A stretch of 48,509 nt of DNA from Candidatus Heimdallarchaeota archaeon (GTDB lineage: Archaea > Asgardarchaeota > Heimdallarchaeia > JABLTI01), in contig JAHLVW010000043.1 of assembly GCA_019058275.1 (NCBI GenBank), positions 1 to 48,509 of the forward strand. The letters run 5' to 3'. The translations under genes and the position numbers were made by a program. A model generated the notes under the pieces. The model was given only the letters and a program-made list of their open reading frames with translations, had not been told where the DNA came from and did not search any database. Of the stretch, positions 2,991 through 36,855 are shown piece after piece. Position 1 is the stretch's first letter. The number at the start of each line of letters is the position of its first letter.

Positions 2991-3188
2991 TTTGCTTTTC
3001 TCAACATACTAACTTTATGAATACTTCGATTACGTCTAAATCTGGCAACCTTAGATTTTCTAATTTTGTAATTTAATAGCTGTATTAAAATTTCCATTGA
3101 TACTCTACTAACCCTTGTTGAGCATTATACGCATTTTTAGAGTTCGAGAAATACTTATTATTAAAGAGGATATTCTCATTGTGATTAT

Positions 3189-3680
3189 TTGGAAGGGTGT
3201 GTCGACTCCAAATTGGCATTAGAAACAGTTGAAGAACTAATAATATTCATTGATTTAGATAACTTCAAGGAAATATCAGAAAAGCAAGGTTGGGCTACGT
3301 ATAAGCCAAATGAAGTAACTGGTGCATTAACGCATTTAGTTTCTGACTTTGTTCGCAAGCACTTAGGTGAAGTTATTTATGGTTTAGATGAAAAGAGAGG
3401 TACAGAGGAATGTATGCTAAGGTTGACTGGTGCGTTATCACATAATGTAATAGTCAATGATTTGGAATTTATTCTAAGTAAAATTCAAAACATTGGATTA
3501 GAATGTGGTTGTGACGTTTCTGTTAGCATTGGAGTGGCACGAGGACCATATACTCCTATCAGACCTACAGGACCTTATCAATGGTCGAAAAGATTATTTA
3601 AAGGACAAGCACAAAGACTTGCTCATAAAGCTCTAAAACGAGCTAAAAGACAAGGTGGAAATAAAATAATCTTCTTATAA
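3189..3680 (+). CDS. Non-canonical GGDEF-like nucleotidyl cyclase domain protein
   Basis: FIDLDNFKEI (DxDxFK), RGTEE at the GGDEF position, VSIGVA, AHKALKRAKRQGGNKI (AD.ALY.AK..G.N consensus). Confidence 0.75.
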   Translation: MEGCVDSKLALETVEELIIFIDLDNFKEISEKQGWATYKPNEVTGALTHLVSDFVRKHLGEVIYGLDEKRGTEECMLRLTGALSHNVIVNDLEFILSKIQNIGLECGCDVSVSIGVARGPYTPIRPTGPYQWSKRLFKGQAQRLAHKALKRAKRQGGNKIIFL

Positions 3681-3709
3681 TTTTGAAGATAACTAAGGTC
3701 TGTATAATT

Positions 3710-4348
3710 ATGGATCAATCAGTTGTTAAGAGAAGATCAAATCAAAAATCAGAAAATGAATTTCTTGTTGATATGCATATACATACCAATTATTCTTTTG
3801 ATAGTAATTTAATGGTTGAAGAAACACTATCAGAACTTGTTGACGTTGTTGATGCAATCGTAATAACTGATCATAATATTATTCCTGATTTACTAAGTGT
3901 AACTTTACAAAGCTATGAAGAGAAATTTCAAATTAGAGTATTTACTTCTTCTGTTGAAATCTCAACTAGACAAGGGGATATTTTAGCTTATGGTATTTCC
4001 GCAGTTCCTTCCACTAATCTTACTCCTGAAGAAATCATAGAAATTATTCATAAAGATGGTGGAATAGCTATTGCTGCACATCCATTTACAATGCTGGGCT
4101 TAGGAGAAGAAATCTACAACTTGAATCTAGATGCAATCGAAGTAAATGGTTCTAGATCAAAAAGAGCTAATGACCAAGCTAAGGAAGCAGCTGAGTCTAT
4201 GGGATTGCCTTGTATAGGTGGTAGTGATTCCCATACCATACATGCAATTGGAAGTTATGCAACTAAATTCAAATTACAAATCAAAACTTTAGATGATATT
4301 ATCGAACAAATAAAGAAGAAAAACTGTTTGCCAATATTCCTACGTTGA
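3710..4348 (+). CDS. PHP-domain metal-dependent phosphoesterase (ATG at 3710 preferred over TTG at 3683)
   Basis: DMHIHTNYSFDS, ITDHN, VEIST, AAHPF, IEVNG, GGSDSH motifs. Confidence 0.92.
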   Translation: MDQSVVKRRSNQKSENEFLVDMHIHTNYSFDSNLMVEETLSELVDVVDAIVITDHNIIPDLLSVTLQSYEEKFQIRVFTSSVEISTRQGDILAYGISAVPSTNLTPEEIIEIIHKDGGIAIAAHPFTMLGLGEEIYNLNLDAIEVNGSRSKRANDQAKEAAESMGLPCIGGSDSHTIHAIGSYATKFKLQIKTLDDIIEQIKKKNCLPIFLR

Positions 4349-22047: not shown

Positions 22048-25000
22048 ATGAGCCAAGTACCCCCAACAAGTGGAAATTCAAAAACTCAACCAACAACTTC
22101 CTTATGTAAGTTGCTTTTTACACATGGTATTGAGGTTGAGAATTTCATTACAAACAAAAGTGGGGATATACTTGAAGATGGCAAAGAATTAGTTGCTGTT
22201 TGGGATCAGATGTTCAATGGTGCGTTTAATTTCCTAAAATCCCTTACAAGCAGCACTAAAAAAGTACCTGAATACATTCGTAAGAAAATCAAGAGAGTAG
22301 TTCGAAAAGACGTCAAAAGACATGGCAAAATTATTCACTATGTCCAGATGCATTATCAGTTTAATGGTAAAACCATCGAGATTAATGTTTTTGGTCCAGA
22401 TCCAAATATCTCTCAAATAACTTGGTTATTGGAATTAGTTACTCCACCTTGTGAATATTTGGAAGAGTTAGAATGGTGGATAAATACTCTTTATATTGCA
22501 GCTTCAAGATCTATTACTAAAGGATATAACATCCAACCTATAGGATTTAACCCATTCCAAACAGAATATAGAGCTGGAGTAACTTGTGGTGAACACCATC
22601 ACCTCGGAGGATTTAAGAGTGAAAAGGAAAAGAAAACTGTTTATAATATGATACGAGCATACATTCCTCATCTAATTGCTCTTTCAAACACTTCTCCTTT
22701 TCTTGATGGAAAAACATCAGGTCGAACGCTTCTGAAAAGAAGTAATGATGGCAGAACTATGATTCTTGCTCCTGATTGTGTTAGGAGTTACAGATTAAAA
22801 GAGAATTCAGGACAATTGGGTCCTAATATTCCAGAATATTTACCTCATGCAAGTCCTACCTTTACTCGTAATCAATTTTCAAGATATGTTAGAAAAGAAG
22901 TTCCAGATGATCGTTATGTGGATGCATTTCCATTTACAAGTTATGGAACTATTGAATTTCGATTTTTTGATGCACAATATGATCAGAATATTAGAAATTC
23001 GATAATTATTTTGTTACAAGCTCTTGCATTGAAAGCTAGAAAACTTCATCAAACAGGTACTTTGTTACCTGAAGTTAAGGGGAATACATTATATGAACAT
23101 CGCAAAAGAGCTGTTAATTTTGGCATGTTTGCAAAATTCCAAGGTGATCCAAGTATAGAATCTGCTGGAGGGGAATTTGTCAAGCATTATAATCATAATC
23201 CCGAATCAGGTGGTCCTCCTGGTAAAATCTATGAATCTTTGAGATCATTGTTAATTTGGTTGAAACCCGAGCTAAAAGAGCTAAAAGTAACTGATAGAGA
23301 TGTTTCATCACTACTAATTATGTTATGGGGAACACCAAGAATCGCTCCACCAATTTCAGCAGCTACTTATATGATTTATCTATATGAACAAAATCACAAA
23401 AATATTGCTAATGTTGTAAGAAGTTTAGCATTAATTAATGGGAAACCACGAAGAACATTTTCTGAAAGTTTAGGCAGATCTGAATATTCACTTGGTAATG
23501 TCTTTACAGCAGAGGTTGCAAAACCAAAGAGAACTGTAGATAGCACAAGAAGTTCATTAGCAAGAAAATTGCAACAAGATTCAAGACATAGACGTAAAAA
23601 AGTAATGGTTAAAGAACGTGCACGTCTTAAAACCAAGCAAATTTTGAAAACAAAAATGATTAGGGAGAAATTGAAGAAAGATAAAGAATTGGAAAGAAAG
23701 AGACAAGCAAGGCTTGCTCAACTTCAAAAAGCTAAAAAAACCTCTCCCAAACCTACTGCTACTCGTTCAACTAAACCCTTTCTACGAACATCTAGTAGTG
23801 TTTACAAAACAAAGATTCCTGTTAGTCGAGTGCCTGCTAAGCGATCAAGTACAACAAGAGCATCTAGTACATCATATAGAAAATTACCAATAAGCAGTAA
23901 AGCAAGAACTACAATAGCTAGAAAAAGTACTATTAAGAAACCTCCAGTTACAACAACTAGAAAACCAACGAAGAAAACACGTACCAGATATAAGAAACCC
24001 AGAAAACCACCAGCTAAAAAGAAAGTAATCACAAAAACTGCTATTAAAAGCAGAGCAAGAACTCCTCAAACAACAAGTAGAAGACCTGCACAAGCATATG
24101 CTTCTACAGTATCAAGGAATTCCTATAATAGACAGCAAATAACCTTACCAAGACCGCAAATTAGCAAACGAACATCTACTAAAACAACAGCAAGAAGGAA
24201 GACCACTCCTAAAAAATCATCAGCACCTACAAAAACAGTAGCTACACAAGCAATTCTTCAATATGAATCCTATAAAGATACAAAATACGTCAGAAATGTT
24301 TCAGTTACTAATTTACCTGCAAGAATTGATTATGGAGCAATAATGCCTGCAATCAAGATTAAATGGAAAAGATCAATTATTCAATCAATGTTAACTTACC
24401 CCGTTATTATAGAAGCAGAAGTATCATCATTAAATAAAGGTAGTAGATTTAGGAAAAAAGCATTTCTTGAGAAAATTAATCTGGTTAAAGCTTCTTTAAG
24501 AGGCACATGTTATTTACCAATCCCAATTAATATCAATGACAATACTGGAGAATTCCAGGTAAAATTCATTGTTAAGGATGGAAAGAATAGAAGAATTCTT
24601 GCTACAGAATATCGAACTTTTTACCGATCCAGAGTTGCTAGAGATAAAATTCATCAAATTAGCAAATTGTATATTCCACCCAATCAAGTTGGTGATTCAA
24701 AAATAAGCATTAAAGTGAAAGCATCAAAGAAAAACTCCAGAGGTAAAATAAGCATTTGGGGAATCTCACAAAGTGGAATAATGAAACTTTATGAGAAAAA
24801 AGCGAAATTTAAACCAGCTACTTTTTCCCTTGATTTACCTGTTTTAATACCTGCAAGCATGTGTTCTTCAAAGTGGTATATTTATGCTGTATTTAATGCC
24901 CGCGGTGCAAGTATAGCGTCCTTTGCAAAAACTTCTCCACCATTATCAAAGATTATCAATCTAAGTTTCAGTGGGAATCCCCCATTAAGACAACGAGTGA

Positions 25001-25323
25001 ATTCTGATTTTCGTTCAGCTATAACACCAAAATTTGTGTTCAAGACCCGATGTGAAATTCACGAAGTTGATATTTTACTAATAGATAATTTGAATGTTAA
25101 AGTTTTGAAAAGATATCGACTAAGAACACGTATCAAAAAAGGAGAAAAATTCGTACTTGAACCATTTGAATGGAAATCACCATCAATGAGAAAAGGAATA
25201 TTCAGCTCTTACAAGCAGAAATCAGTGAGATTAAGTTGTCGAATAATTGATAATCTAGGAGAAATCAATGAATCACTGATTGGTATTGTAGAAACACCAA
25301 CGATTACTGTTTATAAAAAGTAA
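22048..25323 (+). CDS. GCS2/YbdK-type carboxylate-amine ligase fused to a basic low-complexity linker and beta-rich C-terminal domains
   Basis: THGIEVE, LELVTPP, TCGEHHHLG, PHLIALSNTSPFLDG, YGTIEFRFFD; K/R/T/S/P-rich stretch at roughly aa 490-740. Confidence 0.85.
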   Translation: MSQVPPTSGNSKTQPTTSLCKLLFTHGIEVENFITNKSGDILEDGKELVAVWDQMFNGAFNFLKSLTSSTKKVPEYIRKKIKRVVRKDVKRHGKIIHYVQMHYQFNGKTIEINVFGPDPNISQITWLLELVTPPCEYLEELEWWINTLYIAASRSITKGYNIQPIGFNPFQTEYRAGVTCGEHHHLGGFKSEKEKKTVYNMIRAYIPHLIALSNTSPFLDGKTSGRTLLKRSNDGRTMILAPDCVRSYRLKENSGQLGPNIPEYLPHASPTFTRNQFSRYVRKEVPDDRYVDAFPFTSYGTIEFRFFDAQYDQNIRNSIIILLQALALKARKLHQTGTLLPEVKGNTLYEHRKRAVNFGMFAKFQGDPSIESAGGEFVKHYNHNPESGGPPGKIYESLRSLLIWLKPELKELKVTDRDVSSLLIMLWGTPRIAPPISAATYMIYLYEQNHKNIANVVRSLALINGKPRRTFSESLGRSEYSLGNVFTAEVAKPKRTVDSTRSSLARKLQQDSRHRRKKVMVKERARLKTKQILKTKMIREKLKKDKELERKRQARLAQLQKAKKTSPKPTATRSTKPFLRTSSSVYKTKIPVSRVPAKRSSTTRASSTSYRKLPISSKARTTIARKSTIKKPPVTTTRKPTKKTRTRYKKPRKPPAKKKVITKTAIKSRARTPQTTSRRPAQAYASTVSRNSYNRQQITLPRPQISKRTSTKTTARRKTTPKKSSAPTKTVATQAILQYESYKDTKYVRNVSVTNLPARIDYGAIMPAIKIKWKRSIIQSMLTYPVIIEAEVSSLNKGSRFRKKAFLEKINLVKASLRGTCYLPIPININDNTGEFQVKFIVKDGKNRRILATEYRTFYRSRVARDKIHQISKLYIPPNQVGDSKISIKVKASKKNSRGKISIWGISQSGIMKLYEKKAKFKPATFSLDLPVLIPASMCSSKWYIYAVFNARGASIASFAKTSPPLSKIINLSFSGNPPLRQRVNSDFRSAITPKFVFKTRCEIHEVDILLIDNLNVKVLKRYRLRTRIKKGEKFVLEPFEWKSPSMRKGIFSSYKQKSVRLSCRIIDNLGEINESLIGIVETPTITVYKK

Positions 25324-35079: not shown

Positions 35080-36855
35080 TTATATATCGAAATCTTCTTT
35101 GTAAAAAATCCAACTACCATCATCCCATCTATTTAAAACAAATTGCCTCGCATACTTCTGATGCGTTGATTTACCTAAAATTATTTGATTATTTACATTT
35201 TCAGGAAGAAACCAAGTAAAGAAATCAGCCATTGAAAGTGCAGCTGAATGTGGTAAATAAGCCCTTATCATCAAACCATTAAAATGTCCTTCTATTTCAC
35301 CTAAGTAAACATTTGGTAGAAAATTACAAAAACGAGTCAATCGTTCTTTTAAACTTCGAGTATTCTTATTTTTTCTAGTAGTAATATCATTCTCGATATA
35401 GAGATTTATATCAACAGTATTGGGAAGAATCACCCAAATGCCCTCATATAGAATCCCTGAAGCCAGCAGCTTTCTGATTCTTTGAACAGTTTCATTCATA
35501 TCCTTCTTAATATTTTTTTGAATAACCCTTCTTGTGTTATTACCGACTAGATATTGATTGAGAATTTTCAAATCAATCAGATCGATTTCTTGTGGTTCGA
35601 TATCTACTATTCTTGATGGTACAATGATATTCTTAAGAGAACCTTTTTCTAGAGTCTTTGATTCAATTTTGTCTATTTCAAATAAATCGCTTTCTATTGC
35701 TATATCATTAAAATTAATTTTTTGCATTTTTGTTTTGGGATTGAAATACCTAAAAGTGTAATTATTACTTGATTTCGTAATTTCAAAAGCATAATATTTT
35801 GTTATCAAATTTTCAGCCATCAATCTTTCACAATATGAAACCAAGTTATCATAAAATGTTTTAGTTCTAGGTGCTACGTAGTATTGAGTGATAACACAAG
35901 CATTTAAACAATTAAATTTGTGTGAAAATAGAAAAGGATTTTTTGGCAGAGATTTGAATTTAAAGCTTTGATCCTTCAAACATATCAAAAGTACTATATA
36001 TTGTGTCAATCCTAAAGCAAAATAATTGACATCATAAGCATGGACAATTATTTGCATGTCTAGTAATCTTTTAATGGTTTTTGAAATTGTACTTTTATGG
36101 GAATTTGTATGTTTTTTAATTATAGTTGGTTTAATTGTTTGATTAATCAAGATTTTTTCGAGTATATCAACTGCATTCTCCGAAATACTTACGGAATTTA
36201 AATAGATTTCAGATAATAATAACTCAAATTCCTTTGAGCTTAGATCAGAGATTTTTCTACTTTTTTGTCCAAGTTTTAATTTTTCTTCATGTTTATAGTA
36301 CGTTTCATAGAGCCCATGTTTCAGAACATCGATAATTCCTTCAGAACCTGCTGAAGCTATTAGTTGTTTGCAATTATTAATTAGATCCGATTTTCCGGGT
36401 GTAACTTTTCGCCATAACTTTTCCCATTTATTGGATTTTATTTGACTCATTCTAATAGATAATGGAAAAGCATTTGCTAGAAACTTTATCCACCAGAGAT
36501 CCCGACAGGTTTTTGGAGCGAATAATAAGAAGGCTTCGCGCCAAAAGATAGAGCTTTGATAAACATTATCCTGCAGGAAACTCTGATTAATAAATAATGT
36601 CTCACCACTGTACTTACTCCACCTATTTTGATCATTTATTTCCATATCTATGCTAGGCTCAACACGTTTCGGAGTGTATTTTGTTTGAATAAGGAATTTT
36701 TCGATTGTCTTTATTTTACTATATAGTTCATTTTCTAGTTGTGTGAGTTCTTTGAAGGTAGTTTCAGTCAAATTTCCATCACTTTTTAGATTATTTGTTA
36801 TAAATAGGTGATTTTTCCGAAAAAAGACGGAATAACAATGATGTCTTTTTTTCAT
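35080..36855 (-). CDS. Hypothetical protein with tandem winged-HTH + Lrp/AsnC-like modules and an unknown N-terminal domain (true start uncertain)
   Basis: HKSTISKTIKRLLDMQII...VNYFALGL and IDLIDLKILNQY...VQRIRKLLASGIL resemble Lrp HTH repeats. Confidence 0.65.
   Translation of the reverse strand: MKKRHHCYSVFFRKNHLFITNNLKSDGNLTETTFKELTQLENELYSKIKTIEKFLIQTKYTPKRVEPSIDMEINDQNRWSKYSGETLFINQSFLQDNVYQSSIFWREAFLLFAPKTCRDLWWIKFLANAFPLSIRMSQIKSNKWEKLWRKVTPGKSDLINNCKQLIASAGSEGIIDVLKHGLYETYYKHEEKLKLGQKSRKISDLSSKEFELLLSEIYLNSVSISENAVDILEKILINQTIKPTIIKKHTNSHKSTISKTIKRLLDMQIIVHAYDVNYFALGLTQYIVLLICLKDQSFKFKSLPKNPFLFSHKFNCLNACVITQYYVAPRTKTFYDNLVSYCERLMAENLITKYYAFEITKSSNNYTFRYFNPKTKMQKINFNDIAIESDLFEIDKIESKTLEKGSLKNIIVPSRIVDIEPQEIDLIDLKILNQYLVGNNTRRVIQKNIKKDMNETVQRIRKLLASGILYEGIWVILPNTVDINLYIENDITTRKNKNTRSLKERLTRFCNFLPNVYLGEIEGHFNGLMIRAYLPHSAALSMADFFTWFLPENVNNQIILGKSTHQKYARQFVLNRWDDGSWIFYKEDFDI

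Follow-up and report, generated by a model that had tools for sequence, protein, structure and literature searches.

A conserved stand-alone GGDEF-like palm protein of Asgard archaea and Thermoproteota, probably a nucleotide-joining enzyme and recurrently encoded beside a PHP phosphoesterase

We analyzed contig JAHLVW010000043.1 of a Candidatus Heimdallarchaeota archaeon (assembly GCA_019058275.1) over the whole of its 48,509 nt, referred to below as the window, where a preliminary description made from the DNA letters had assigned a short gene at 3189−3680 of the forward strand to a GGDEF-like enzyme with a rewired base-specificity pocket. The open reading frame (ORF) opens at TTG 3189 and translates to 163 aa, and all motifs quoted for it (DLDNFK, RGTEE and GWATYKPNEVTG) were located as claimed. 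Its 39 close homologs, mostly annotated as “hypothetical protein” and originating from metagenome-assembled genomes (MAGs) of Asgard and Heimdall-/Thorarchaeota, are mostly 155 aa long and begin with MALETVEE, 8 residues downstream of the start of the 163-aa frame; because most homologs begin at this later residue, the TTG at 3213 is most likely the start of the gene. Residue numbers given throughout are those of the 163-aa frame. The gene product (palm protein), 155−163 aa in length, has about 8–16 residues ahead of strand β1 and, as noted at the outset, carries no sensor or dimerisation domain; no second domain of any kind was found in it. The gene and its key elements are as follows.

3213..3680, + strand: coding sequence of the GGDEF-like palm protein, 155 aa when read from the conserved TTG at 3213 (ORF list, translation, homolog starts)
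3252..3260, + strand: D22-L23-D24 at the end of strand β1, with D22 on the first metal-binding Asp of GGDEF enzymes (DosC alignment)
3288..3323, + strand: family-specific loop GWATYKPNEVTG, residues 34–45 (G34 to G45, with Y38, P40, N41 and T44), in place of the GHxxGD guanine-reading segment
3381..3410, + strand: signature hairpin G65-L-D67-E-K-R70-G71-T72-E73-E74, with GTEE for GG(D/E)EF and a 4-residue GLDx insertion ahead of it
3645..3647, + strand: K153 in A-x-x-A-L-x-x-A-K-x-x-G-G-N, on the phosphate-binding Lys of GGDEF enzymes (AK..GRN)

Conserved catalytic residues and an altered base-reading loop

Conservation was counted in 215 distinct members aligned to the family profile and spanning Asgard, Thermoproteota and Euryarchaeota MAGs, and correspondences to GGDEF residues were taken from a HMMER alignment with the DosC GGDEF domain. 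Within DLDNFK (residues 22–27, nt 3252–3269), D22, which by our own count on the published PleD sequence we take to be PleD D327, is present in 209 members (with Glu in 3 others and Gln in 1), and D24 in 213. RGTEE comprises residues 70–74, its GTEE part (nt 3399–3410) being aligned on GGDEF itself; across this hairpin G65 was found in 212 members, D67 in 197 (Asn in a further 14), G71 in 213, and T72, E73 and E74 in 212 each. K153 is conserved in 214, and both the TIGR00254 and DosC alignments reach the C-terminus, where AKK.GGN of the family overlies AK..GRN of DosC. The retention of the first metal-binding Asp and of the RGTEE acids, originally read from a single protein, extends to ~97–99% of the family for D22, E73 and E74, whereas the Lys of DLDNFK, expected to be equally invariant, is not conserved (K27 is Lys in 67, Glu in 60 and Gly in 57 members). 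The metal-binding acids are conserved far above chance expectation, and the near-invariance of D22, D24, E73, E74 and K153 indicates strong purifying selection on the predicted catalytic machinery, which supports well the earlier suggestion of an active enzyme.

By alignment, the putative base-reading region is swapped for another, equally conserved loop. Compared with (W)GHxxGD, the GW..YKPN loop has a 2-residue insertion and places N41 on the guanine-binding Asp; G34 is found in 208, Y38 in 204, P40 in 209, N41 in 211 and T44 in 211 members. S30 lies on the guanine-binding Asn, in agreement with the reading of Ser for the Asn of FKxxND, and varies within the family (Val in 95, Thr in 41, Ser in 36 and Ala in 20). 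The rewiring of the pocket held at the sequence level through the family-wide pattern G34-W-x-x-Y38-x-P40-N41-x-x-T44, not through the Ser that had been stressed. The two guanine-binding residues correspond to N335 and D344 of PleD. A non-GTP or mixed specificity, as first proposed, is conceivable as pure conjecture, and the parallel drawn with the Hypr GGDEF enzymes, in which Asp is changed to Ser, is a loose one, as the palm family has an invariant Asn at this position and lacks the N-terminal element of GGDEF domains. The RxxD I-site is absent from the palm protein, in which no Arg occurs three residues ahead of D67. Taken together, the family signature reads DxD ... GW..Y.PN..TG ... GLD..RGTEE ... 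AK..GG. In some Thermoproteota members (P0063, P0065, P0066 and P0072, of the Desulfurococcales) the C-terminus is prolonged by a short stretch with a conserved Pro-x-x-Cys, a feature not seen in the Asgard members.

Predicted fold and distribution of the family

The AlphaFold2 (AF2) model built from a 25-sequence alignment (pLDDT 86, pTM 0.82) adopts a β-α-α-β-β-α-β-α-β palm fold, which gave the following structural matches (Z score, root-mean-square deviation (rmsd) and residues matched).

Adenylyl cyclase Ma1120: 13.9, rmsd 2.6, 125
mCpol OptS (9mnr): 13.6, rmsd 2.5, 111 of 119
DosC GGDEF: 13.4, rmsd 2.9, 131; 28% identity, the highest among the structural matches
GTP cyclohydrolase III (2qv6): 11.4, rmsd 6.5, 129

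The adenylyl cyclase, mCpol and GGDEF matches were tied within one Z unit, and the predicted fold puts the palm protein among nucleotide cyclases/oligomerases without choosing between them. GTP cyclohydrolase III (GCH-III), the non-signalling palm enzyme raised in the preliminary description, was not the best match and stood behind ~30 better cyclase matches. Prediction of a two-copy homodimer (alignment A2) scored 0.02 against a mark of 0.42, a result that weighs neither way.

Similarity to known profiles was recognizable and below their cut-offs, with E 0.011 and 15.9 bits for Pfam GGDEF PF00990 (cut-off 23.8), and E 6e-5 and 22.8 bits for TIGR00254 (cut-off 37.4). Because these matches begin at profile position 34–37, corresponding to palm residue 16–17, the N-terminal helix/hairpin of GGDEF domains (profile positions 1–33) is missing. 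Among 31 diverse members, 14 gave weak GGDEF matches (E ≤ 1), 13 matched the GdpP-type GGDEF model, 2 matched Cas10 palm2 and none matched GTP cyclohydrolase III PF05165. A profile search of 1.84 billion representative proteins recovered 48 clusters, 35 of them at E ≤ 1e-10 and nearly all made of stand-alone proteins of ~150 aa; the first proteins outside the family, canonical bacterial-type GGDEF proteins with sensor domains, appeared at E ~1e-4. No family-specific Pfam model exists for these archaeal proteins. Sequence and profile searches of Protein Data Bank (PDB) chains returned marginal GGDEF matches alone (DosC, E 0.02–0.14) together with spurious ones, and no longer, fused forms of the family were found at E ≤ 1e-6 in a word-indexed database, which is weak evidence. 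The exhaustive profile search of representative proteins yielded a single Toprim fusion. These data are best explained by a distinct archaeal family within the GGDEF/mCpol/class III cyclase palm superfamily.

Going beyond the preliminary description, the family proved to be an old and widespread archaeal one with a link to a PHP phosphoesterase. Of 400 Asgard genomes, 30 carry the palm gene, each in a single copy, and these represent 11 of 85 genera. Thermoproteota contribute many members from the Desulfurococcales, Acidilobaceae and Pyrodictiaceae, including Stetteria and an Aeropyrum sp. MAG as well as the cultured Hyperthermus butylicus (WP_011822031) and Pyrolobus fumarii (Pyrfu_0834); others come from MAGs of Theionarchaea, Thermococci and Nezhaarchaeales. 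The source genome of the window (93% complete) had no matches to GGDEF, EAL, PilZ or DAC domains in scans to which control genomes responded. DAC, the cyclase for cyclic di-AMP (c-di-AMP), occurs in 3 of the 400 Asgard genomes and is rare with or without the palm gene, so rare that looking for a complementary distribution of the two is uninformative.

The PHP phosphoesterase and other neighbours

Immediately downstream of the palm gene, on the same strand and at a distance of 29 nt, lies a second gene with which it is probably co-transcribed.

3710..4348, + strand: PHP/PHP_C metal-dependent phosphoesterase, ~212 aa from ATG 3710 (frame opens at 3683); Pfam PHP_C 1e-17, PHP 2.6e-4

Its NCBIfam matches are to CehA/McbA, RNase RNM and pAp-phosphatase-like proteins, and the metal ligands H23, H25, D54, H55, E83, H124, E144, D173 and H175 are invariant in its orthologs. 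The small PHP/PHP_C phosphoesterase family seems uncharacterised, and the source genome encodes four PHP/PHP_C paralogs, two of them at C2:71625-72203 and C101:4035-4610.

Gene context was compared by clustering ORFs from ~105 loci, those of Thermoproteota being gathered with alignment subset A3. A PHP gene adjoins the palm gene in four separate settings with differing gene orders. At 11 Asgard loci belonging to three genome families it follows the palm gene on the same strand after a gap of 3–51 nt, and the flanks differ among these families, with FtsX and TrpRS in the family of the window, a 670-aa zinc-ribbon protein and L35Ae in another, and a third context at locus L038. In a fourth Asgard family (L037) the PHP gene is upstream and divergent. 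At three loci of Theionarchaea/Thermococci MAGs (L129, L132 and L134), the palm gene is immediately preceded on its own strand by a distant PHP-like gene, whose products keep all PHP metal ligands in a joint alignment. The last setting is a metagenome contig (JBEEQD010021751.1; L140:4782-6237) that encodes a 292-aa protein, P0073, consisting of a UPF0292/PRK04017 Toprim domain (RNase M5-like; NF003091, E 5e-29) joined to a palm domain with GTEQ for GTEE; P0073 forms a singleton cluster, its gene is overlapped at the 3′ end by a PHP/PHP_C gene, and a DUF167/YggU gene precedes it. Several palm-bearing lineages lack a PHP gene next to the palm gene, as do most of the members from Thermoproteota. 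The coupling of the two genes is real across lineages and not obligatory. An obligate write/erase pair was considered and rejected, as seven genomes keep the PHP gene alone and several palm lineages lack an adjacent one.

In Thermoproteota (loci L056−L126) the palm gene stands beside TBP at 41 loci, often on the same strand and 76–125 nt upstream, and an SbcD-related Metallophos gene (TIGR00024, above cut-off) lies within ~1.3 kb at 28 loci in several arrangements; the palm, TBP and Metallophos genes remain together through several rearrangements. At L036, L040, L049 and L034 (Asgard families f14 and f8), the palm start lies inside the 3′ end of the gene for TgtA, the archaeosine tRNA-guanine transglycosylase, with an overlap of 13 nt at L040, and in these loci FtsZ follows shortly after the palm gene, whereas RadA precedes it by a few genes. 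Other contexts include RadA and Cdc6 downstream and a histidine kinase overlapping the palm start by 4 nt.

The window itself is a low-GC (~32%) piece of core chromosome encoding TrpRS, CDP-archaeol synthase, MetRS, SRP54 and an eRF1-family protein. A scan of the whole window with Rfam gave no family matches, and a tRNA scan found none. A defence-system reading of the locus was tried and rejected, given the lack of PADLOC matches, the core-chromosome setting and the single-copy gene. The region ahead of the palm gene presumably contains its promoter.

2991..3188, no strand assigned: AT-rich intergenic region of ~200 bp between the palm gene and a divergent RAM-domain gene; putative promoter region of the palm gene

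The divergent gene (2721–2990, − strand) encodes a stand-alone 89-aa Lrp/AsnC ligand-binding (RAM) protein lacking a helix-turn-helix, and recurs solely within the window's own Asgard family (L001, L127, L131 and L133). The gene at 1309–2691 (− strand) encodes a 460-aa EamA-type transporter with the same RAM domain at its C-terminus; at L054, which belongs to an unrelated member, the palm gene is likewise followed by an EamA gene. Two further long ORFs are a 1091-aa one at 22048–25323 (+ strand), with a single short weak match to glutamate-cysteine-ligase-2, and a 591-aa one at 35080–36855 (− strand), with no Pfam matches.

Interpretation and comparison with known systems

The fold, the invariance of the catalytic residues, the recurrent PHP linkage and the lack of canonical cyclic di-GMP (c-di-GMP) or c-di-AMP domains in the source genome are solid in this analysis, and the conserved residues together with the recurrent PHP neighbour make it probable that the palm protein is an active nucleotide-joining enzyme. 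We give about even chances to a more explicit proposal, namely that it condenses nucleoside triphosphates (NTPs) to a small oligonucleotide, linear or cyclic, that is not c-di-GMP, and that the PHP enzyme handles this product or a related nucleotide. The chemistry, dimerisation, product, PHP role and any signalling function that we infer would be as follows. The protein would be an active nucleotidyltransferase that stands alone constitutively, in which D22 together with E73/E74 would hold two divalent metals and K153 the triphosphate. Attack of a 3′-OH on the α-phosphate would join NTPs into a small di- or oligonucleotide, either linear or cyclic, and by analogy with GGDEF and mCpol enzymes the working form would probably be a transient homodimer. 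The adjacent PHP/PHP_C enzyme, a phosphoesterase with a predicted trinuclear metal center, may have this nucleotide as its substrate, the simplest case being hydrolysis of the product or of its linear intermediate. A narrower proposal, that the palm protein is the synthase of an archaeal nucleotide second messenger (a di- or oligonucleotide, not c-di-GMP) with PHP/PHP_C as its dedicated eraser, is possible but we hold it only tentatively.

Several observations weigh against such an enzyme–partner system. Receptors or effectors of the CARF, SAVED, PilZ or 2TM kind were not recurrent in ~100 neighbourhoods, the neighbours being housekeeping genes (TrpRS, TBP, RadA, Cdc6, FtsZ and TgtA), and much of the TBP/Metallophos linkage in Thermoproteota could be inherited gene order. 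PHP/PHP_C occurs in 182 of the 400 Asgard genomes compared with 30 for the palm family, and in 7 genomes of one Asgard family the orthologous PHP gene occupies the same locus with the palm gene cleanly absent and no remnant left. Since the PHP family is far wider and some genomes keep PHP alone, the PHP enzyme is independent of the palm protein. The palm family lacks the N-terminal element of GGDEF domains and has Thr for the second Gly of the hairpin. Finally, Anantharaman, Iyer & Aravind (2010; PMC2904730) predicted archaeal GGDEF relatives to be active and doubted a role in signalling, because these proteins have no signalling-domain partners.

Among other explanations, the palm protein and its neighbour might form a two-gene analogue of GdpP, with a degenerate module that binds or slowly hydrolyses NTPs and controls or assists the phosphoesterase while making no oligonucleotide. 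We consider this rather unlikely, although the GdpP-type GGDEF model was matched by about as many of the 31 diverse members as the classical one (13 against 14; best E 1.7e-5), Galperin (2005; PMC1183210) placed MK0296 and APE1864 in one truncated-GGDEF group with the COG3887 (GdpP) domains, the recurrent phosphoesterase pairing resembles the GGDEF + DHH/DHHA1 architecture of GdpP, and the “truncated” GGDEF domain of GdpP/YybT has ATPase activity according to a statement cited in PMC8646023. The PF24898 matches are far under cut-off (12.8–13.1 bits for the window protein against 30), the metal acids and the Lys are ~97–99% conserved, which is stricter than a merely regulatory domain would need, most Thermoproteota members have no neighbouring PHP gene, and the PHP gene is retained without the palm gene in some genomes. 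A role in nucleic-acid end processing or repair appears more improbable still; here a minimal template-independent palm polymerase of Thg1-like logic would extend RNA or DNA ends alongside a nuclease (PHP, the SbcD-related Metallophos or the fused RNase M5-like Toprim). The palm is common to Thg1 and GGDEF (PMC2904730), RNase RNM/AM is among the relatives of the PHP partner, the Thermoproteota neighbour TIGR00024 (“SbcD_rel_arch”) is related to the ligase-associated endonuclease PdeM, information-processing neighbours are frequent (TBP, RadA, Cdc6 and TgtA), and one member is fused to the UPF0292/PRK04017 Toprim domain with a PHP gene next to it. That fusion is, however, a single metagenomic protein, the housekeeping neighbours vary by lineage, the closest folds and the sole sequence matches are cyclases, and a 150-residue protein offers no fingers, thumb or nucleic-acid-binding domain.

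The two remaining explanations are very improbable. An ordinary diguanylate cyclase would agree with GGDEF being the best sequence-level match and with the top identity of DosC among the structural matches; however, c-di-GMP is an unlikely product because the putative base pocket is unlike the one in diguanylate cyclases, with both guanine-reading positions altered (Asn to Val, Thr, Ser or Ala, and Asp to an invariant Asn). The scores below the Pfam and TIGRFAM cut-offs, the missing N-terminal GGDEF element and RxxD I-site, and the absence of EAL and PilZ domains from the genome point the same way. Least credible is that the palm protein is inactive and structural, or a non-signalling hydrolase like GCH-III. 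GCH-III itself has two domains in ~250 aa, its fold fits worse (rmsd 6.5) than ~30 cyclases and its Pfam model matched no family member scanned, and the near-invariant catalytic residues speak against an inactive protein.

GGDEF-type signalling is generally considered absent from archaea, and the c-di-AMP cyclase is likewise missing from most Asgard and Thermoproteota genomes. With a palm enzyme that has no sensor, is strictly conserved, occurs both in cultured hyperthermophiles (Hyperthermus, Pyrolobus and Aeropyrum) and in Asgard archaea and is repeatedly coupled to a nucleotide phosphoesterase, it becomes testable whether these archaea have a small nucleotide product of their own. If the second-messenger proposal were true, Asgard archaea and hyperthermophilic Thermoproteota would have a GGDEF-derived signalling distinct from the bacterial one. 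Should the activity amount to mere NTP hydrolysis or action on RNA ends, the family would be a new member of the minimal palm nucleotidyltransferases with a nuclease partner.

The family has probably been noted in 2005 and 2010 and never characterised; a literature search found no experimental work on it. Galperin (2005; PMC1183210) listed MK0296 of Methanopyrus kandleri and APE1864 of Aeropyrum pernix as truncated GGDEF with the GdpP group, and that paper and Anantharaman et al. (2010) give the group one sentence each, without Asgard members, PHP linkage, motif analysis or experiments. The UniProt accessions are Q8TYK1 for MK0296 and Q9YAS9 for APE1864. The present family very probably is the MK0296/APE1864 group, the two proteins having been compared by description only, because it includes the Aeropyrum sp. 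MAG ortholog P0217 and other Desulfurococcales/Pyrodictiaceae proteins; both are small stand-alone archaeal truncated GGDEF-like palms that keep the catalytic acids and have no signalling domains.

With the GGDEF cyclases (PleD, WspR and DosC; PF00990) the palm family shares the palm fold, the first-strand Asp, the acidic hairpin and the C-terminal AK..G.N Lys. It differs from them in having GTEE(A/V/C) for GG(D/E)EF (T72 in 212 of 215) and the GLDx insertion, in the replacement of both the guanine-binding Asn and Asp (Val, Thr, Ser or Ala at the S30 position, and the invariant N41), and in lacking the N-terminal helix/hairpin, I-site and sensor domain in an archaeal host without EAL/PilZ. GdpP/YybT (PF24898 + DHH/DHHA1) likewise ties a truncated GGDEF-like domain to a metal-dependent phosphoesterase and shows weak profile similarity, whereas in the palm family the two are separate genes, the partner is PHP or Metallophos rather than DHH, and the catalytic acids are strictly conserved. 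mCpol/OptS of Panoptes (PDB 9mnr and 9nwn) is also a minimal stand-alone Cas10-like palm fold. However, no match to it was found at the sequence level, the palm family has GTEE where mCpol has GGDD, and the palm protein is ~35 residues longer, with a conserved basic β4-α4 loop. The ATP-selecting Ser is conserved in mCpol and its equivalent position, S30, is variable in the palm family; the palm gene, lying in a core chromosomal context outside any defence island and without a PADLOC match, has no linked 2TM-β/CARF-TM effector. The mCpol dimer makes c-di-AMP constitutively and selects ATP through a Ser and an Asn (PMC12657230), and this equally minimal palm raises, by analogy, the prior that stand-alone domains such as the one described here may be real synthases.
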